DNA of 64,000 nucleotides, from assembly GCF_003334815.1 (NCBI RefSeq), contig NZ_QOWO01000019.1. The stretch is one strand, 5' to 3'. Source of the stretch: Escherichia coli. Lineage in GTDB: Bacteria; Pseudomonadota; Gammaproteobacteria; Enterobacterales; Enterobacteriaceae. Under the pieces are notes generated by a model, which did no database searches, was not told the origin of the DNA, and saw only the letters and a list, made by a program, of their open reading frames with translations. Position numbers and translations under genes: made by a program. Position 1 is the first letter of the stretch, and every line of letters begins with the position of its first letter. Shown piece after piece: positions 1 to 11,090 of the stretch.

Positions 1-1172
1 ACGTAAGGCGTTGTTATGAAGGCTTCAGCAAATAAAACATTATTTTCTCGATCTTCACTATAAATAGCGCCAGGTATTATATCCCATCCTCCGGGGCTAA
101 GCTGTGTTCCAGCATGGATATTGTGTGAAACGGTGATCGGAGAAAAATTTAAACCTGTTTGCAAGGTAATAATATTAAGAATGTCCCCCATAACGCCCCG
201 AACCGAGCCATTTTCATCCGTCATAGAATAGGGGGGCGAGTAAGGATTTTCCAGCACCTTTAAATTGGGATGCTGCTTAATCCACTGTTTTTCATGTTCA
301 GTGAGTTCTAATGGTTTGTTCAGAAAGGCCAGGTTTCCTGTATCAAGCCAATTTTGTGATACTTCATAGCGAACTTCATTTGTTAAAGCATCAACAAATC
401 TATTGAGTACTTCATTAAGAATGACAGATTCTTTTCTGGTCAAGAAAAAATTATATTGACGCGGCGAGTTATAATATTTCACTACATTTAAGGAGTGAGT
501 GAAATAGCGGGAAATCATACTGCTGGTAATGATGTTACTACCAATAAAGTAATCATTGTGCCCAGCTGAGACGGATGCTAATGCCTGATATAAATTTGTA
601 AAAGAGATAATTGTTGCTTTTGGAAATGATTGATGAATTACCTCGTCTGGGGGGTAATTTGCTACCCGAGCAATATTTACTGGTTTTGGTGAGGTAAGCG
701 GTCGCATTGAGTCGTGAAGGGTGGTTACCAGCGCCGGAAAGGTAATTATCAATGGTTTGGTTGCAGCAATGTCATTATTAAGAGGCGGCGAAGTAACTAA
801 ATGTGATAACACTATATCGACTTCACCTTCTGCAAGCGCGTCCATTGCTTTTTGATGATCTGCGTATTCCCGGAGTGTTAATTTGATATTTAACGCTCTT
901 TTTAAAAGATTTAAATAATCAGCATTAATACCACGAACCCGTTGCTGCGAATCGGTATGCAACAACGTAGCCGTTTGGGACTTATGTACTGCAATCACAA
1001 GATTTTTTTTGCTCGCTAACCAACGTAATTCCTTGTTGCTCAGACGTAGTGGATCAAGTGTGACACGGTTGTTACTACTGATGCCACGATATTCGATGTA
1101 ATCTTCGTCTGCGAAACTTATGGTCGACCAAAGACCACAACAGAGAAGAAAAATATAGGGTAAAAACTTCAT
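1..1172 (-). CDS. evgS: Sensor histidine kinase EvgS, N-terminal part only (gene continues past window start)
   Basis: Reverse-strand frame starting at ATG 1172 translates MKFLPYIFLLCCGLWSTISFADEDYIEYRGISS..., the known EvgS N-terminus; open to position 1; lies 4 bp downstream of evgA stop as in the evgAS operon. Confidence 0.9.
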   Translation of the reverse strand, partial: MKFLPYIFLLCCGLWSTISFADEDYIEYRGISSNNRVTLDPLRLSNKELRWLASKKNLVIAVHKSQTATLLHTDSQQRVRGINADYLNLLKRALNIKLTLREYADHQKAMDALAEGEVDIVLSHLVTSPPLNNDIAATKPLIITFPALVTTLHDSMRPLTSPKPVNIARVANYPPDEVIHQSFPKATIISFTNLYQALASVSAGHNDYFIGSNIITSSMISRYFTHSLNVVKYYNSPRQYNFFLTRKESVILNEVLNRFVDALTNEVRYEVSQNWLDTGNLAFLNKPLELTEHEKQWIKQHPNLKVLENPYSPPYSMTDENGSVRGVMGDILNIITLQTGLNFSPITVSHNIHAGTQLSPGGWDIIPGAIYSEDRENNVLFAEAFITTPY

Positions 1173-1176
1173 GTGG

Positions 1177-1791
1177 TTAGCCGATTTTGTTACGTTGTGC
1201 GAATGTGTAAAGATCCATCAGTGATTTACATTCTAATTTTTCCATCAGGCGACTTTTATAAGTGCTGACAGTTTTGTTGCTGATGAACATTTTTTCAGCA
1301 ATGTCATTATTATCCTTGCCATCAAGAATATACCGCATGACACTAATTTCTTGTTTCGATAAGGAGTCGAGTTTTTGCTGGTCGGACGTTAAACTTCCAA
1401 CAAACCGGTTGAGAGAGAAGGGGAAATAGCAGTAGCCATTTTTTGCAGCTTCAATAGCCGCAATGATATTGTTCATGCCTTCTTTTTTACTCACGAAACC
1501 ATTAGCGCCAGCATCAGCACAATGTTTCCCGTAAAAATGGTCATTTTTAGCGGAGACGATAATAATAATTCCGCTATATTGGCGCTTCCTCAGCGTTTCT
1601 AACACCTGGATACCGTTAACTCCGGGGATATCGACATCAATGATGACGATATCAGGCTTAAGTGTTTCCACCCGCTGAACGGCACTTCCGCCTTCAGTCA
1701 ACTCTGCTAAGATTTCAATATCGTTTTTGATCAATAAATTACGAATTGCTGCGATAGCAAGAGGATGGTCATCAATAATTATTGCGTTCAT
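1177..1791 (-). CDS. evgA: Response regulator EvgA (NarL/FixJ family)
   Basis: 204-aa ORF MNAIIIDDHPLAIAAIRNLL...; receiver domain plus LuxR-type HTH; sits between evgS and divergent emrK. Confidence 0.95.
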   Translation of the reverse strand: MNAIIIDDHPLAIAAIRNLLIKNDIEILAELTEGGSAVQRVETLKPDIVIIDVDIPGVNGIQVLETLRKRQYSGIIIIVSAKNDHFYGKHCADAGANGFVSKKEGMNNIIAAIEAAKNGYCYFPFSLNRFVGSLTSDQQKLDSLSKQEISVMRYILDGKDNNDIAEKMFISNKTVSTYKSRLMEKLECKSLMDLYTFAQRNKIG

Positions 1792-2015
1792 AGATTATTC
1801 CCTTTGCAATGAAGCATCTCCCTTCTCCCTGTAGTAATACAGACATAAGGCGTCATCTCATTTTCTCAATAAAAATAAGAAAATCTGAGCTTCCTTTAAG
1901 ATAATTCGACAAGTATACCATATAAATAGTCGGCATAAATGAAATGTCAACAATAAAATCAGGGATTGTACCGATGATTTATAGTTTCAAGTTGGCACTA
2001 TAAGTCTTCTTACTA

Positions 2016-2033
2016 ATCCTACAGGCGTAAGAA
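2016..2033 (+). promoter_or_regulatory. Candidate EvgA-binding box in evgA-emrK divergent intergenic region
   Basis: 18-bp ATCCTACAGGCGTAAGAA matches the recalled EvgA consensus TTCYTACA-NN-TGTARGAA with 2 mismatches; about 175 bp upstream of emrK start; a TTCTTAC half-site lies just upstream at 2007-2013. Confidence 0.4.
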
Positions 2034-2206
2034 TTGTATTGCAAAAGCCACGGTTTAGTCCTCTGTTGTTTTTTTTGCACCTCATTTAAATTAGGCCTCC
2101 AACGTTCCTGGGATAATGTGCAACACATGCACTGTGTTTGATATGAAGAATGAATGCTCTTTTCATTCAATTCATAAATTTCATCTATGAGAAATGAGAG
2201 ATAATA

Positions 2207-3370
2207 GTGGAACAGATTAATTCAAATAAAAAACATTCTAACAGAAGAAAATACTTTTCTTTATTGGCGGTAGTTTTATTTATTGCGTTTTCAGGTGCCT
2301 ATGCCTATTGGTCAATGGAATTAGAAGACATGATTAGTACAGATGACGCCTATGTCACGGGGAATGCAGATCCAATTTCTGCACAAGTCTCAGGTAGTGT
2401 CACTGTCGTTAATCATAAAGATACGAACTACGTTCGACAAGGTGACATTTTAGTTTCACTGGATAAAACTGATGCCACTATCGCACTCAATAAAGCTAAA
2501 AATAATCTGGCAAATATTGTTCGGCAAACGAATAAACTATACTTACAGGATAAACAATACAGTGCCGAAGTCGCTTCAGCACGTATTCAGTATCAACAAT
2601 CTTTAGAAGATTATAACCGTCGAGTGCCGTTAGCGAAGCAGGGGGTTATTTCAAAAGAAACGCTGGAGCATACCAAAGATACGTTAATAAGTAGCAAAGC
2701 GGCATTGAATGCCGCTATCCAGGCTTATAAAGCGAATAAAGCTTTAGTAATGAACACACCATTAAACCGTCAGCCACAAGTCGTTGAAGCGGCGGATGCA
2801 ACTAAAGAAGCCTGGTTGGCGCTTAAACGTACGGATATTAAGAGTCCGGTTACCGGCTATATTGCCCAGAGAAGTGTTCAGGTCGGCGAAACAGTGAGCC
2901 CCGGACAATCGTTAATGGCTGTCGTACCGGCACGTCAAATGTGGGTTAATGCCAACTTTAAAGAAACACAACTCACGGATGTACGGATTGGTCAATCGGT
3001 CAATATTATCAGCGATCTTTATGGTGAAAATGTTGTGTTTCATGGTCGGGTGACAGGGATCAATATGGGAACCGGCAATGCGTTCTCCTTATTACCTGCA
3101 CAAAATGCGACAGGGAACTGGATCAAAATCGTTCAGCGTGTACCGGTTGAAGTTTCTCTTGATCCAAAAGAACTCATGGAACACCCCTTGCGTATTGGTT
3201 TATCGATGACAGCAACTATTGATACGAAGAACGAAGACATTGCCGAGATGCCTGAGCTGGCTTCAACCGTGACCTCCATGCCGGCTTATACCAGTAAGGC
3301 TTTAGTTATCGATACCAGTCCGATAGAAAAAGAAATTAGCAACATTATTTCGCATAATGGACAACTTTAA
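2207..3370 (+). CDS. emrK: Multidrug efflux membrane fusion protein EmrK (EmrA paralogue)
   Basis: 387-aa ORF with N-terminal TM helix and HlyD-like periplasmic adaptor sequence; followed by overlapping MFS pump gene. Confidence 0.93.
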   Translation: MEQINSNKKHSNRRKYFSLLAVVLFIAFSGAYAYWSMELEDMISTDDAYVTGNADPISAQVSGSVTVVNHKDTNYVRQGDILVSLDKTDATIALNKAKNNLANIVRQTNKLYLQDKQYSAEVASARIQYQQSLEDYNRRVPLAKQGVISKETLEHTKDTLISSKAALNAAIQAYKANKALVMNTPLNRQPQVVEAADATKEAWLALKRTDIKSPVTGYIAQRSVQVGETVSPGQSLMAVVPARQMWVNANFKETQLTDVRIGQSVNIISDLYGENVVFHGRVTGINMGTGNAFSLLPAQNATGNWIKIVQRVPVEVSLDPKELMEHPLRIGLSMTATIDTKNEDIAEMPELASTVTSMPAYTSKALVIDTSPIEKEISNIISHNGQL

Positions 3371-4908
3371 TGGCAATCACTAAATCAACTCCGGCACCAT
3401 TAACCGGTGGGACGTTATGGTGCGTCACTATTGCATTGTCATTAGCGACATTTATGCAAATGTTGGATTCCACTATTTCTAACGTCGCAATACCGACAAT
3501 ATCTGGCTTTCTGGGAGCATCAACAGACGAAGGCACCTGGGTTATCACCTCGTTTGGTGTAGCAAATGCCATTGCGATCCCTGTTACTGGCAGGTTGGCA
3601 CAAAGAATAGGCGAATTAAGATTATTTTTACTTTCAGTCACTTTTTTTTCGCTGTCTTCATTAATGTGTAGCCTATCGACCAATCTTGATGTGCTGATAT
3701 TTTTTAGAGTCGTTCAGGGGTTAATGGCGGGGCCGTTAATTCCACTGTCACAGAGTTTATTATTAAGGAATTATCCGCCAGAAAAAAGAACATTTGCTCT
3801 GGCATTATGGTCAATGACCGTGATTATCGCTCCGATATGTGGGCCGATATTGGGCGGTTATATTTGTGATAACTTTAGCTGGGGTTGGATATTTTTAATC
3901 AATGTCCCTATGGGGATTATCGTCCTGACATTATGCTTAACCTTACTTAAAGGAAGAGAAACTGAGACTTCACCGGTCAAAATGAATCTACCAGGACTGA
4001 CCCTGTTAGTGCTCGGTGTTGGTGGCTTGCAAATTATGCTTGATAAAGGGCGCGATCTGGATTGGTTCAACTCGAGTACAATAATAATATTAACAGTAGT
4101 ATCAGTTATTTCTCTGATCTCTTTAGTCATTTGGGAGTCGACCTCAGAGAACCCGATTCTTGATCTCAGTTTGTTTAAGTCCCGTAACTTCACCATTGGT
4201 ATTGTGAGTATCACATGCGCGTATTTATTTTACTCTGGAGCGATCGTCCTTATGCCGCAGTTACTCCAGGAAACGATGGGGTATAATGCGATATGGGCCG
4301 GACTTGCTTATGCGCCCATCGGCATCATGCCACTATTAATTTCACCTTTGATAGGACGTTATGGCAACAAAATAGACATGCGGTTGTTAGTGACATTTAG
4401 TTTTTTGATGTATGCGGTTTGCTATTACTGGCGTTCTGTGACATTTATGCCAACGATTGATTTTACAGGCATCATTTTGCCGCAGTTTTTTCAGGGATTC
4501 GCCGTTGCCTGTTTCTTTTTACCCTTAACAACGATTTCGTTTTCAGGCTTGCCAGATAATAAATTTGCCAATGCCTCGAGTATGAGTAATTTTTTTCGTA
4601 CCTTGTCAGGATCAGTTGGTACGTCGTTGACAATGACGCTGTGGGGACGACGCGAATCGTTACACCATAGTCAGTTGACAGCAACCATCGATCAATTTAA
4701 CCCCGTGTTTAATTCATCGTCACAAATTATGGATAAATATTATGGTTCGCTTTCAGGAGTTCTTAATGAAATTAATAATGAAATAACCCAGCAGTCACTT
4801 TCTATTTCTGCAAATGAGATTTTCCGTATGGCGGCTATTGCTTTTATCTTACTTACGGTTTTGGTTTGGTTTGCGAAACCGCCGTTTACAGCGAAAGGCG
4901 TTGGGTGA
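3370..4908 (+). CDS. emrY: Multidrug efflux MFS transporter EmrY (EmrB paralogue)
   Basis: 512-aa polytopic membrane ORF; start overlaps emrK stop by 1 nt (TAATG), consistent with translational coupling. Confidence 0.93.
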   Translation: MAITKSTPAPLTGGTLWCVTIALSLATFMQMLDSTISNVAIPTISGFLGASTDEGTWVITSFGVANAIAIPVTGRLAQRIGELRLFLLSVTFFSLSSLMCSLSTNLDVLIFFRVVQGLMAGPLIPLSQSLLLRNYPPEKRTFALALWSMTVIIAPICGPILGGYICDNFSWGWIFLINVPMGIIVLTLCLTLLKGRETETSPVKMNLPGLTLLVLGVGGLQIMLDKGRDLDWFNSSTIIILTVVSVISLISLVIWESTSENPILDLSLFKSRNFTIGIVSITCAYLFYSGAIVLMPQLLQETMGYNAIWAGLAYAPIGIMPLLISPLIGRYGNKIDMRLLVTFSFLMYAVCYYWRSVTFMPTIDFTGIILPQFFQGFAVACFFLPLTTISFSGLPDNKFANASSMSNFFRTLSGSVGTSLTMTLWGRRESLHHSQLTATIDQFNPVFNSSSQIMDKYYGSLSGVLNEINNEITQQSLSISANEIFRMAAIAFILLTVLVWFAKPPFTAKGVG

Positions 4909-5015
4909 TGATAAAAGGAGGGGGTTATAGCGGGTAAGACCGGGGATCTTAAGTCTGCGCCATCGGCAGCATCGCTCACCCAGGGAAAGGATTGCGATGC
5001 TGCGTTGAAACGTTA

Positions 5016-6344
5016 TTAACGGCCTTTTGCCAGATATTGATTCATCTCTTCTTCCGGCACCATTCCACCTCCCGTCGCCCACACCAGATGAGTGGTATTA
5101 CGCAGTTGTTCTGCGCTGAAACCGTGCATCTGTTGGTAACTTACTGATGCACACACGCGCTGAGGTCCGGCCATACCCGCCAGTGCCGAAGGTTCAAGAC
5201 GAATACCTTCTTCCTGCGCCAGCCAGCCAAGCATGTCATACATGGTTTGATCGCTAAGGGTATAGAAGCCATCCAGCAGACGCTCCATTGCCCGCCCGAC
5301 AAAGCCTGATGCGCGACCAACTGCAAGGCCATCCGCTGCGGTAAGGTTGTCGATACCAATATCCTGAACAGAAATCTGATCGTGTAATCCTGTATGGACG
5401 CCTAACAACATACAAGGGGAGTGCGTTGGTTCGGCAAAAAAGCAGTGAACATGATCGCCAAACGCCAGTTTAAGCCCGAATGCGACGCCACCAGGACCAC
5501 CGCCAACACCACACGGCAGATAGACAAACAGAGGGTTATCAGCATCGACGATACGGCCTTGCTGGGCAAATTGCGCTTTAAGACGCTGGCCAGCGACGGA
5601 ATACCCAAGGAACAACGTGCGGGAATTTTCGTCATCAATAAAGAAACAGTTCGGGTCAGACTGCGCTGCTTTACGTCCTTCCTCGACGGCAACACCATAA
5701 TCTTGCTCATATTCCACGACCGTAACGCCATGGCTGCGCAGTTTCGCTTTTTTCCATGCCCGGGCATCAGCAGACATATGAACTGTCACCTTAAAGCCAA
5801 TGCGGGCGCTCATAATGCCGATTGATAACCCCAGATTTCCGGTTGAGCCCACAGCAATGCTGTATTGGCTAAAGAACTGTTTAAACTCCGGAGAAAGCAG
5901 TTTGCTGTAGTCATCATCAAGCGTCAGCAACCCCGCTTCCAGAGCCAGTTTTTCTGCGTGTGCCAGGACTTCATAAATCCCGCCGCGTGCTTTTATGGAG
6001 CCGGAAATGGGCAAATGGCTATCTTTTTTCAGTAACAGTTGCCCGCTGATCGGTTGCTGATATTCTTTTTCCAGCCGTTTTTGCATAGCTGGAATGGCAA
6101 CCAGTTCTGATTCAATAATCCCCCCAGTGGCAGCAGTTTCAGGAAATGCTTTTGCCAGATAGGGTGCAAAACGGGATAAGCGCGCATGGGCGTCCTGAAC
6201 ATCCTGTTCGGTCAGGCCAACATAAGGTAAACCTTCAGCCAATGAGGTCGTGCCAGGATTAAACCAGGTGGTTTCTTTAAGAGCAACCAGATCCTTTACC
6301 AACGGATACTGGGCGATGAGCGAGTTCATTTTAGCGTTTTCCAT
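5016..6344 (-). CDS. dsdA: D-serine dehydratase (D-serine ammonia-lyase)
   Basis: 442-aa [34 protein letters not shown]..., PLP-dependent fold; downstream of dsdX. Confidence 0.95.
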
Positions 6345-6361: not shown

Positions 6362-7699
6362 TTAGATGATAAATGACAGCAGGAATGTGCCCGCCAGAGC
6401 GACGACTGAAGCGATAAATGTCGCTGTCGTATAGTATTTAAATGTTTCATTGAGCGTAGCGCCGCAATATTGCTTCACTAGCCAGAAAAGCGAGTCCGTA
6501 ACGATAGTGCAGCCAATTGCACCTGAACCGATAGCAATCGCAATAATTTCCGGGCTGATGTCGGGATACAGCGGCAGCATGGGTGCAACAATTGCCGTTG
6601 CCCCCATCATTGCCACGGTAGCGGAGCCCACTGCCGCATGCAGAATAAGAGCCACTAACCAGGCCAGAAGAATCGGGTGCATATGCATATTGGAGAGAAT
6701 AACTGCCAGCGTATCAGCGAGACTGCTGCTTTTTAAAATGGCGTTGAATGCGCCTCCGGCCCCGATAATCAGCAAAATATTAGCAATAGAACCGAAGCCA
6801 TTTTCCGTATGTGTGAGCATCGTCCCCATGCTCATATGCTGGCGTATACCCAACACATAATAGGCGACAAACACGGCGATAAACATGGCAGTGATAGGGT
6901 TGCCAATAAACTCAACCAAGATATACAAACCACTCTCACGCGCCATATTCAATTCGGCAATCGTTTTAACCAACATCAGCGCAATGGGTAGCAGTATGGT
7001 GAATAACGTTGCGCCTAATGACGGTAGTGTTTTTTCATCGCGAACTTTGAGATCTGCAAACTCTGTGGGTACAGGTTTAAAGGGCAGTCGTTGACCCAGA
7101 AATTTAAGGAAAAGTGGGCCACCGATCAGTGATGCCATCAGCCCAACCAGCAAACCGTAGACGATCACCGAACCGATATCTGCGCCCAGCTTATTGGCAA
7201 CATATAAAGCAGCCGGATGTGGAGGAACCACGCAGTGCACTGCCATCAATGCGGTACATAGCGGAATGGCAAGCTTTAATAATGAGGTATTGGTTTTTTT
7301 GGCAATTGAAAAAGCCAGAGGAATCAATAGCACGACGCCCACTTCAACAAACAGCGTGATGCCACAAATCAGGCCAACCAGCACCATAATGACATCAACT
7401 GAAAGCCAGCGGCAGCGTTGAAGTGTCAGACCAATTCTTTCTGCGGCCCCGGATACTTCCATCATTTTTCCCAGTATCGTGCCAAGGCCGATAACCGCTG
7501 CGAGGAACCCCAGCGTTCCGCCAATTCCACTTTCAATAGCATTTACCATATCCAGTGGCCCCATGCCCATCATCGTTCCCACGAAGAAGCTGGCCAGCAA
7601 CAGCGCCAGAAACGGGTGGAATTTGAACTTCACGATGGTCAGTACAATTAACACGATGCTGATAAGCAGCGTGCTCACAACCCAGATTTGAGAGTGCAT
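6362..7699 (-). CDS. dsdX: D-serine transporter DsdX (GntP family permease)
   Basis: 445-aa polytopic membrane ORF of gluconate-permease type immediately upstream of dsdA. Confidence 0.93.
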
Positions 7700-7916: not shown

Positions 7917-8852
7917 ATGGAACCCCTTCGTGAAATAAGAAATCGGCTGCTTAACGGCTGGCAATTATCAAAAATGCATACTTTTGAAGTGGCTGCCAGG
8001 CATCAGTCCTTCGCCCTGGCGGCAGAGGAATTGTCGCTGAGCCCCAGTGCGGTAAGTCACCGTATCAATCAGCTGGAAGAAGAATTGGGCATTCAGTTGT
8101 TTGTTCGTTCCCATCGCAAAGTGGAATTAACGCACGAGGGGAAACGTGTTTATTGGGCGCTAAAATCGTCGCTGGATACCCTGAACCAGGAAATTCTTGA
8201 TATCAAAAATCAGGAGTTATCGGGAACGTTAACTCTGTATTCCCGGCCCTCTATCGCCCAATGCTGGTTGGTGCCCGCATTAGGTGACTTTACACGCCGG
8301 TATCCGTCTATTTCGCTCACCGTGCTCACTGGTAATGACAACGTCAATCTGCAACGTGCCGGAATCGATTTGGCGATCTACTTTGATGATGCGCCGTCAG
8401 CGCAACTCACTCATCACTTTCTGATGGATGAAGAAATCCTGCCAGTATGTAGCCCGGAATACGCTCAAAGACATGCTTTAACCAACACGGTAATTAACCT
8501 GTGTCACTGTACGTTGCTCCATGACAGACAGGCATGGAGCAACGACTCCGGTACGGATGAATGGCATAGTTGGGCGCAACATTATGCGGTTAATTTGCCG
8601 ACATCTTCTGGAATTGGCTTTGATCGTTCTGATTTAGCTGTTATTGCCGCGATGAATCATATTGGGGTGGCGATGGGAAGAAAACGCCTGGTACAAAAAA
8701 GGCTTGCCAGTGGTGAGCTCGTCGCGCCGTTTGGCGATATGACGGTGAAATGCCATCAGCATTATTACATCACCACATTACCGGGCAGGCAGTGGCCAAA
8801 AATTGAAGCGTTTATTATCTGGCTAAGAGAACAGGTAAAAACCACTTCATAA
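7917..8852 (+). CDS. dsdC: LysR-type transcriptional activator DsdC
   Basis: ORF with N-terminal LysR HTH (HTFEVAARHQSFALAAEELSLSPSAVSHRINQLEEELG); divergent from dsdXA; start set at MEPLREIRNR (ORF track begins 2 codons earlier at 7911). Confidence 0.9.
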   Translation: MEPLREIRNRLLNGWQLSKMHTFEVAARHQSFALAAEELSLSPSAVSHRINQLEEELGIQLFVRSHRKVELTHEGKRVYWALKSSLDTLNQEILDIKNQELSGTLTLYSRPSIAQCWLVPALGDFTRRYPSISLTVLTGNDNVNLQRAGIDLAIYFDDAPSAQLTHHFLMDEEILPVCSPEYAQRHALTNTVINLCHCTLLHDRQAWSNDSGTDEWHSWAQHYAVNLPTSSGIGFDRSDLAVIAAMNHIGVAMGRKRLVQKRLASGELVAPFGDMTVKCHQHYYITTLPGRQWPKIEAFIIWLREQVKTTS

Positions 8853-8946
8853 TGAATAAAACCACGAGTTCCTGGTGTGCCTTATTCGGCCTGCTAGTTC
8901 GAATTTAATTTACGGTTTTTATGTGGTTTTAGGGATAAACACAAGG

Positions 8947-9021
8947 ATGGTGTCCCCTGCAGGAATCGAACCTGCAATTAGCCCTTAGGAGGGGCTCGTT
9001 ATATCCATTTAACTAAGAGGA
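8947..9021 (-). tRNA. argW: tRNA-Arg (anticodon CCU)
   Basis: Reverse complement reads GTCCTCTTAGTTAAATGGATATAACGAGCCCCTCCTAAGGGCTAATTGCAGGTTCGATTCCTGCAGGGGACACCA: cloverleaf, anticodon loop CUCCUAA, T-loop GGTTCGATTCC, 3-prime CCA encoded. Confidence 0.93.
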
Positions 9022-9097
9022 CAATGCGGCATGAGTATACCCGCTAATGGAGTGCGGGGTAAGTACGCTGCCGCTCGATTGCTTAAACCCTCGCCAT

Positions 9098-10030
9098 TTA
9101 TGCCGGGTTTTTATAATTTTTCTTAATGTTTTCCGCACGTTCTGCTTTTTGGCGTGCTTCTGCTTTACGCTTATTGCTCATGTCGTTACGAATCTGTGCA
9201 TGACTCATTAACGCGAAGATAAAGGTGCCGCCGCAGATGTTCCCCGCTAAAGTAGGTAGTGCGAAGGGCCAGATGAAATCGCTCCAGTGCAGCGTACCGT
9301 TAAACACCAGATAGAGGATTTCAACAGAACCGACCACGATATGGGTGGTGTCACCCAGGGCAATAAGCCAGGTCATCAATATAATCACCACAATCTTTGC
9401 CGCACCCGCTGCAGGAAACATCCAAACCATAGTGGCGATCAGCCAGCCGGAAATGATCGCGTTGGCAAACATCTCGCTGGGGGTGTTCTTCATCACATCC
9501 ATGCCGATTTTGACAAATGCATCGCGAGTTTCTTCATTGAAGATAGGCATATATTCAAATGCCCACGCCGCAATACCTGTCCCGAGAATATTACCCAGCA
9601 GCACGACGCCCCATAACCGTATAAGTAAGCCGACGTTGCTCATTGTCGGTTTTTGCATGACGGGTAGTACCGCAGTCACGGTATTTTCGGTAAATAATTG
9701 CTGGCGGGCCATAATGACGATAATAAAACCAAAGGTATAACCGAGATTCTCCAGCAAGAAGCTGCCCGGCACACCTTCCAGTTCGACTTGAAATATCCCT
9801 TTTGCCAGTAACGAAGCGCCCATCGACAGACCCGCCGCAATGGCTGACCACAGTAGCGCCATTGCGTCGCGTTCCAGCTCTTTTTCACCATCCTGGCGGA
9901 TATGCTCATGAATTGCCATCGCCCGGGAGGGGAGTCGGTCTTCATCTATTTCTATTTTTTTGCCGCGCTCTTTTTCTTCGCTCTCAACTTCAATTTCGTC
10001 GCTGTGTTGATCAATTTTGTCGTTGTCCAT
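9098..10030 (-). CDS. yfdC: Inner membrane protein YfdC, formate/nitrite transporter (FNT) family
   Basis: 310-aa ORF with acidic N-terminus and FNT-like TM core; located between argW and mlaA. Confidence 0.9.
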   Translation of the reverse strand: MDNDKIDQHSDEIEVESEEKERGKKIEIDEDRLPSRAMAIHEHIRQDGEKELERDAMALLWSAIAAGLSMGASLLAKGIFQVELEGVPGSFLLENLGYTFGFIIVIMARQQLFTENTVTAVLPVMQKPTMSNVGLLIRLWGVVLLGNILGTGIAAWAFEYMPIFNEETRDAFVKIGMDVMKNTPSEMFANAIISGWLIATMVWMFPAAGAAKIVVIILMTWLIALGDTTHIVVGSVEILYLVFNGTLHWSDFIWPFALPTLAGNICGGTFIFALMSHAQIRNDMSNKRKAEARQKAERAENIKKNYKNPA

Positions 10031-10323
10031 GGTCTCTTCTCTTGAATTAGCACGTATAGCTAAAGCGTAGCGGCTTTTTTGCTCGCAACTGACGGGAGTT
10101 ACTCTGAAAATGTAGAAAAGGCTGCGTTTGCCTTTTTCTGTTTCTATAGAATCAAGTAGCCTACAGGGCGGCGATTACCAGGCTATGATCAAATCAGCAA
10201 ATCAGGGCGTCTGGACATCAGTTGACGTGCTGTTACAATCGCCCACACCTAAACAGGCGGATACGGTATCGTTCCGTCATGGATGGCAAACTGCATAAGC
10301 CATAAAAAAACAGGGAGACATTT

Positions 10324-11079
10324 ATGAAGCTTCGCCTGTCGGCGCTTGCTCTGGGAACTACGCTTCTGGTGGGGTGTGCGAGTTCCGGTACAGATCAGCA
10401 AGGGCGTTCTGACCCGTTAGAAGGGTTCAACCGCACCATGTACAACTTCAACTTCAATGTATTAGACCCGTATATTGTTCGACCGGTCGCTGTCGCCTGG
10501 CGTGATTATGTTCCGCAACCGGCGCGTAACGGTTTGAGCAACTTTACTGGCAACCTTGAAGAACCTGCGGTGATGGTTAACTACTTCTTGCAGGGCGACC
10601 CTTATCAGGGGATGGTCCACTTTACCCGCTTTTTCCTGAACACCATTTTGGGGATGGGCGGTTTTATTGATGTTGCAGGGATGGCGAACCCGAAACTGCA
10701 ACGGACTGAACCTCACCGCTTCGGTAGTACGCTTGGTCATTATGGCGTGGGTTATGGGCCTTACGTTCAGTTACCGTTCTACGGTAGCTTCACGCTGCGT
10801 GATGACGGTGGTGATATGGCGGATGGTCTTTACCCGGTTCTTTCCTGGCTGACCTGGCCGATGTCTGTGGGTAAATGGACGCTTGAAGGGATCGAAACCC
10901 GCGCTCAGCTGCTGGATTCCGATGGTCTGCTGCGTCAGTCGTCCGATCCTTATATTATGGTGCGCGAAGCGTACTTCCAGCGTCATGATTTCATCGCTAA
11001 TGGCGGCGAACTCAAACCGCAGGAAAATCCGAACGCACAAGCGATTCAGGATGATTTAAAAGATATTGATTCTGAATAA
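10324..11079 (+). CDS. mlaA: Outer-membrane lipoprotein MlaA (VacJ), phospholipid asymmetry maintenance
   Basis: 251-aa ORF with lipoprotein signal MKLRLSALALGTTLLVGC (lipobox LVGC) and MlaA/VacJ family sequence. Confidence 0.93.
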   Translation: MKLRLSALALGTTLLVGCASSGTDQQGRSDPLEGFNRTMYNFNFNVLDPYIVRPVAVAWRDYVPQPARNGLSNFTGNLEEPAVMVNYFLQGDPYQGMVHFTRFFLNTILGMGGFIDVAGMANPKLQRTEPHRFGSTLGHYGVGYGPYVQLPFYGSFTLRDDGGDMADGLYPVLSWLTWPMSVGKWTLEGIETRAQLLDSDGLLRQSSDPYIMVREAYFQRHDFIANGGELKPQENPNAQAIQDDLKDIDSE

Positions 11080-11090
11080 GAAACAAATAA

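Follow-up and report, generated by a model that had tools for sequence, protein, structure and literature searches.

The tRNA gene argW of Escherichia coli is a documented integration hotspot (PMC2951348; 10.1101/2021.11.03.467220; PMC8065619). The best described elements at this gene are KplE1 (CPS-53), the P22-like phages HK620, Sf6 and Kapi1, which employ the integrase IntS together with a TorI/Xis directionality factor. The recombination module shared by KplE1, HK620 and Sf6 has been published, and KplE1 excision has been reported in vitro as well as in vivo, making it an excision-proficient element (PMC2951348). Kapi1 integrates at the same core between yfdC and dsdC, and in its non-lysogenic host the tRNA-Arg gene sits directly between dsdC and yfdC; deletion of a 17-bp attB in that host abolished integration at the site (19/20 versus 0/24 colonies) (10.1101/2021.11.03.467220). 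Stx phages also have argW as a listed insertion site (PMC8065619), and two further papers (PMC13054288; PMC4366372), with reference to Moritz and Welch 2006 and Jahreis et al. 2002, call the locus highly variable via phage integration, dsdCXA and cscRAKB being the alternatives.

The stretch of DNA analyzed here (64 kb in full, hereafter the window) contains the same argW host gene with a core identical to that of KplE1, HK620, Sf6 and Kapi1. Its yfdC-argW-dsdC neighborhood is that of the empty Kapi1 host KP7, and its flanks are those of attL and attR in K-12, with the difference from K-12 that the site in the window is empty. Set against the variable argW locus, also described as the "argW-dsdCXA genetic island", the window is the same locus in its simplest published configuration, in which dsdCXA is intact and both csc genes and a prophage are missing. 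The locus, the core, the phages and the variability are all already published and the window adds nothing new to their description. Its sequence can serve as a clean attB reference when prophages, satellites and Stx phages at argW are annotated; beyond such bookkeeping its importance is little.

Gene order around argW and the 16-bp attachment core

ARAGORN finds a single tRNA in the 64-kb window, on the minus strand at 8948-9022; it is a tRNA-Arg and its anticodon is CCT. The Rfam tRNA model RF00005 matches 8951-9022 with 63.4 bits against a gathering score of 29 (E 1.3e-12), and the CCA 3' end of the gene is encoded at 8948-8950. Gene names were taken from the RefSeq annotation of a genome (strain 300709) that is 100% identical over the 701 bp compared, and from K-12. 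The features of the locus, which follow the species backbone order dsdA-dsdX-dsdC / argW-yfdC-mlaA, are:

5016-6344, minus strand: dsdA (open reading frame listing)
6362-7699, minus strand: dsdX (open reading frame listing)
7917-8852, plus strand: dsdC, LysR-type activator of dsdXA (open reading frame listing; RefSeq annotation of strain 300709 and K-12 J53)
8853-8947, no strand: dsdC-argW spacer, 95 bp, 39% GC, with the same sequence as in K-12 from dsdC to the attR core
8947-8962, minus strand: attB core of the IntS-type integrases (KplE1/CPS-53, HK620, Sf6, Kapi1), 16 bp, the overlap of K-12 attL and attR
8948-9022, minus strand: argW, tRNA-Arg(CCU), 75 nt, CCA encoded (ARAGORN and Rfam; annotated as tRNA-Arg in identical genomes)
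8950-8970, minus strand: crossover segment of a P4-like satellite, 21 nt, GTGTCCCCTGCAGGAATCGAA, intact and single-copy (junction comparison with strain NCTC9087)
8999-9022, minus strand: 5' segment of argW, tRNA positions 1-24, 24 nt, core of EHEC lambdoid prophages, intact and single-copy in the window
9023-9097, minus strand: yfdC-argW spacer, 75 bp, contiguous with and identical to K-12
9098-10030, minus strand: yfdC, formate/nitrite-transporter family gene, the proximal flank, 75 bp beyond the tRNA 5' end
10324-11079, plus strand: mlaA, beyond yfdC on the 5' side of argW (open reading frame listing)

The dsdC gene converges on argW and is the distal, attR-side flank of the attachment site. 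In the first-pass annotation its stop had been placed at 8852, which the open reading frame listing bears out. The same annotation had located the tRNA correctly, but its ends at 8947 and 9021 are each one base off; similarly, the near-adjacency of dsdC and argW is real, but the gap given as about 94 bp measures 95 bp.

The core reads ATGGTGTCCCCTGCAG on the window strand and CTGCAGGGGACACCAT on the tRNA strand, and spans tRNA positions 61-75, the last 15 nt of argW, plus one further nucleotide. The same 16 bp make up the annotated attP core of HK620 and the published core of KplE1, CTGCAGGGGACACCAT (PMC2951348). In K-12 J53 the KplE1/CPS-53 element (10.2 kb, torI to intS) is seen between dsdC and argW where it had been said to lie, and the attL of K-12 retains the full tRNA. 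Alignment of the junction against K-12, as proposed earlier, delimited attL and attR: in the three-way comparison the window consists of the K-12 attR flank, the 16-bp core and the K-12 attL flank, and the 16-mer at 8947-8962 is the sole sequence common to the window and both K-12 junctions. The window has no mismatch to K-12 over 8962 bp on the dsd side, and 1 over 2801 bp followed by 7 over 50000 bp, gap-free, on the yfdC side; the two sequences are collinear except for the missing KplE1. From the succession of attR flank, core and attL flank we infer, with high confidence, that the segment is the intact, unoccupied attB of E. coli argW, a reading that none of the results speaks against.

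The core is single-copy in the 64-kb window even when up to three mismatches are allowed, and so are the 25-nt 3' segment and the 24-nt 5' segment of argW. Repeat searches of the window with the 16-bp, 25-nt 3' and 24-nt 5' segments gave no direct repeat of a tRNA segment bounding an element; as a positive control, the test detected a 23-nt repeat 9.1 kb downstream of argW in Enterobacter sp. (locus L037).

IntS-family tyrosine integrases, those of KplE1/CPS-53, HK620, Sf6, Kapi1 and some Stx phages, would exchange strands between this 16-bp core and an identical attP core. Integration would put the prophage between argW and dsdC, with the tRNA's 3' end rebuilt from phage DNA, and would leave a 16-bp repeat beside the spacer. 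Such recombination would be expected, from the literature on these phages, at a core whose anatomy, sequence identities, single-copy status and prevalence were read directly. A search for integrases with 95% or higher identity to IntS gives 38 phage records; CUS-3, HK620, HK633, Sf6, IME10, Kapi1 and the Stx2 phage VT2phi_272 are among them. Phages with such integrases would all meet an intact core in the window, which makes argW of this strain a probable site of lysogenization by IntS-type phages. On its 5' side the core is preceded by G in the window, in contrast to A, the phage-derived 17th base of the Kapi1 attP; the divergent E. coli AVS0068 has A at this position.

The dsdC-argW spacer and the flank outside E. 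coli

The spacer at 8853-8947 contains no open reading frame of 40 or more amino acids, no integrase gene or fragment adjoins the tRNA, and Rfam gives no match within it. Its folding is no more stable than that of shuffled sequence (z of -0.39 and -0.76). A duplicated 3' segment of the tRNA was looked for in the spacer, again as proposed earlier, and none was found beyond chance. The best local alignment between spacer and tRNA sets TGGTGTGCC (8873-8881) against TGGTGTCCC (8948-8956) with 8/9 nt matching, a score that is equaled or exceeded by 49% of 2000 shuffled spacers, or by 21% when only the 3' 43 nt of the tRNA are considered. The open reading frame scan, the repeat searches and the shuffle test, negative throughout, agree with the initial statement that the spacer carries no integrase, tRNA repeat or cargo.

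The 95-bp spacer can be read as an excision scar or degraded island, that is, the residue of an older element with TGGTGTGCC as its decayed attR. The repeat search does list this 9-nt match (8 of 9) at a start-to-start distance of exactly 75 nt from the tRNA 3' end, and the spacer sequence was not found beside argW in any other genus (80 loci examined). However, the shuffle test places the match at chance level, and 8873-8881 was rejected as a decayed attR; the spacer is without an integrase-like open reading frame; spacer and dsdC are kept as a unit in the divergent E. coli AVS0068; and no relic att core delimiting an ancient island was found between lpxP and dsdC of K-12 (20.5 kb), allowing 4/16 or 7/25 mismatches. 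We therefore regard a scar as very improbable.

Two further candidates were discarded. A region of the spacer around TTCGAA shows inverted similarity to the T-arm, which is a product of the palindromic TTCGAA itself and scores at chance level, and the Rfam match to Plastid-ycf2, which runs antisense to the tRNA and whose 24.8 bits fall short of the gathering score (65.7), is likewise due to chance. Consensus promoter and terminator scans of the spacer and the argW surroundings called no sites, and the expression signals of argW are to this extent inferred. The argW promoter is presumed to lie within 9023-9097, where a possible TTACCC-17-TATACT (9062-9034, minus strand) was read by eye that the consensus scan did not call.

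The flanks of argW were compared in 80 yfdC-anchored loci, taken from other Enterobacteriaceae and from Escherichia species other than E. coli, a sample that does not include E. albertii, E. fergusonii or E. marmotae. The order mlaA-yfdC-argW is conserved across this sample, with yfdC and argW linked in 75 of the 80 loci. On the other side of the tRNA none of the 80 has orthologs of DsdC, DsdX or DsdA within 10 kb downstream of argW, the only hits being LysR paralogs of 26-32% identity, and none shares the spacer sequence beside argW; those loci that are occupied by large prophages are uninformative on the ancestral flank. The shortest arrangement is argW followed, after about 290-320 bp, by lpxP-alaC-ypdAB-glk (Lelliottia and Enterobacter; loci L036, L068 and L079). 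In E. coli about 19 kb, dsdCXA through yfdY, separates argW from lpxP, and in the divergent "E. coli" E69 another sequence follows attR. Because the dsdC-side flank is common to divergent E. coli but absent beside argW in the 80 non-E. coli loci, the spacer appears to represent the E. coli backbone state and not a deep ancestral one.

We tentatively suggest that the ~19-kb block between argW and lpxP, with dsdCXA, emrKY, evgAS, yfdE, yfdV, oxc, frc, yfdX, ypdI and yfdY, may have entered by successive argW-directed insertions that, later devoid of integrases and att repeats, became fixed as core genes. If true, the acid-resistance regulator EvgAS and D-serine catabolism would be domesticated tRNA-island cargo, and the empty site would be the newest layer of an older stack. 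The absence of the block from other genera, the 39-43% GC over evgA-emrKY and the different cargo in Escherichia whittamii would support such a history, but the synteny of the block would follow equally well from its loss in other genera or from ordinary rearrangement. In E. coli the block is not bounded by any relic att core, so its origin as an ancient island is only a synteny-based possibility.

With respect to base composition, evgA-emrK-emrY (within 1-5000 of the window) has 39-43% GC and yfdF (within 11001-12000) 36%, against 50% for the whole window. Low GC on both sides of the argW region would be compatible with horizontally acquired DNA.

In E. whittamii (locus L008, 11084-19800) a KplE1-type attL and a truncated intS lie downstream of argW. 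They are followed by a seven-gene cluster (including a FAD oxidoreductase-like gene, two glycosyltransferase genes, a sugar epimerase-like gene and an SMR/ArnF-like gene) and then by yfdY-lpxP; no dsd, emr, evg or oxalate genes were found at this locus. In Enterobacter sp. CC120223-11 (locus L037) argW is at 10999-11073 and a perfect 23-nt copy of its 3' end at 20168-20190, 9.1 kb downstream, which seems to indicate an island bounded by direct repeats; no IntS-like integrase match was found in this island.

Other crossover segments within argW

Over the 25 kb compared, the flanks of E. coli NCTC9087 match the window at 100%, and an 11.5-kb P4-like satellite lies between argW and dsdC (locus L087, 8853-20562; window equivalent 8948-8970). 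Its genes include an integrase, a TOPRIM/DUF927 primase, psu and ogr/delta. Like the IntS-type phages this satellite makes use of the same tRNA's 3' end, and its segment 8950-8970 is present in the window, from which the satellite itself is absent. It differs from IntS-type integration in its loss of the full CCA: the rebuilt tRNA gene of NCTC9087 reads ...GGGGACAC|TTTAAA, no longer encodes CCA in full and is annotated as 72 nt. In the attR copy of NCTC9087 a CCCC run is one C shorter, perhaps through a sequencing error in the homopolymer.

An argW gene that ends in GGGGACAC followed by TTT/TT instead of CCA is also seen in many Enterobacter, Lelliottia, Kluyvera and Citrobacter genomes (loci L019, L027, L034, L036, L046, L048, L049, L054, L055, L057, L060, L068, L082 and L084). 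This ending has the same signature as the P4-like attL of NCTC9087. Old satellite integrations may have rewritten the tRNA 3' end in these genomes, or CCA may simply not be encoded there.

Stx/lambdoid prophages of EHEC use the same tRNA but insert on its yfdC side and not on its dsdC side, at a site that is unoccupied in the window. Prophage DNA lies between argW and yfdC in O145:H28 RM12581 (locus L003, 4348-5787) and in an O157:H7 strain (locus L004, 3900-4030), and the duplicated core is in both cases the 24-nt 5' end of argW. Insertion at this end parts the tRNA from its native upstream region beside yfdC, and transcription of the tRNA must therefore come from phage-supplied sequence. The O157 element at argW ends in an 8.4-kb gene with an LPD38 domain.

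In one tRNA gene of 75 nt there are at least three separate segments for crossover, in agreement with the published work on the locus. Every crossover core is present once in the window, so argW here is free of integrated elements and of any detectable remnant of one.

Prevalence and history of the empty site

A 701-bp dsdC-argW-yfdC query is contiguous in 911 of 5426 complete E. coli genomes, about one in six. That this contiguity arose from assembly collapse is unlikely, since 911 independent complete genomes share it. The same arrangement, with a 99-bp spacer and a few SNPs and indels, is found in AVS0068, a divergent E. coli at 96% identity, which points to dsdC-spacer-argW as an E. coli-wide backbone state.

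Wild isolates such as BS74R-D, ML35 and NCTC9100 match the window at 100% over 25 kb, with the site empty. A K-12 strain cured of CPS-53 was considered as the source of the window and ruled out by eight SNPs relative to K-12 and by the wild isolates identical to the window. The fimbrial usher gene yfcU (20330-22975) is intact in the window, whereas in K-12/J53 it has an internal stop at codon 579 arising from a single difference at window position 22066 (C in the window, G in K-12). Judging from the intact yfcU, which carries a stop in J53, and from the several wild isolates identical over 25 kb, the window is from a natural relative of K-12 and not from an engineered deletion strain.

The first-pass annotation had described the junction as the ancestral empty site. 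As the unoccupied attB counterpart of K-12 attL and attR the description stands, but the terms ancestral and naive are only partly supported, in view of exact excision, fast turnover and an E. coli-specific flank. Excision by a tyrosine integrase restores attB exactly and KplE1 is excision-proficient, so the sequence, free of any scar, fits a cured site as well as one that was never occupied. On identical 25-kb flanks (near-identical in the case of K-12) the site occurs empty, with the P4-like satellite or with KplE1; turnover is therefore faster than flank divergence, and polarity is not readable from the site. These comparisons illustrate that argW occupancy changes faster than its flanks diverge, consistent with published work.

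Only 362 genomes have KplE1 in its K-12 form (coverage of at least 80%); identity reaches 99% or more in 359, and the KplE1 records listed carry lab-strain names, apparently of the K-12 lineage. Few genomes and lab-strain names among the records listed mean that simple counting favors a gain in the K-12 line. The advanced decay of KplE1, together with the near-identical flanks, argues against a very recent gain.

That this lineage never carried an argW element, and that the window preserves the pre-insertion state from which the K-12 KplE1 locus derives, has in our judgment a little less than an even chance. The absence of any scar or repeat fits such a history, as do the small number of genomes with KplE1, the mostly empty site in wild isolates with identical flanks, for which one gain in K-12 is the cheapest count, and the same dsdC-spacer-argW order in divergent E. 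coli at 96% identity. The missing scar is however uninformative when excision is exact and KplE1 is able to excise, the dsdC flank is not ancestral at the family level, and KplE1 is a heavily decayed 10.2-kb remnant between flanks that nevertheless differ at only about 1 in 7,000 bases, which does not sit easily with an intact phage having been acquired very recently.

It is quite possible, if not favored, that a recent ancestor had an argW prophage or satellite that was lost by precise excision through integrase and directionality factor, or through homologous recombination that brought in an empty allele. Elements able to excise are known from argW (PMC2951348), the three states of the site on 100% identical 25-kb flanks amount to rapid gain and loss, and the flanks are near-identical to those of K-12, the bearer of an old, decayed element. 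Against such a loss, it is without positive evidence, of which none can exist at the site itself, and the K-12 form of KplE1 is seemingly confined to the ~362 genomes of what is apparently the K-12 lineage.

Strain 300709, whose argW junction equals that of the window, differs nearby in an element that the window lacks: an extra ISEc20 (IS110-like), at 9875-11071 of its own sequence, lies between yfdF and fadL, at the equivalent of about 12400-12680 in the window.
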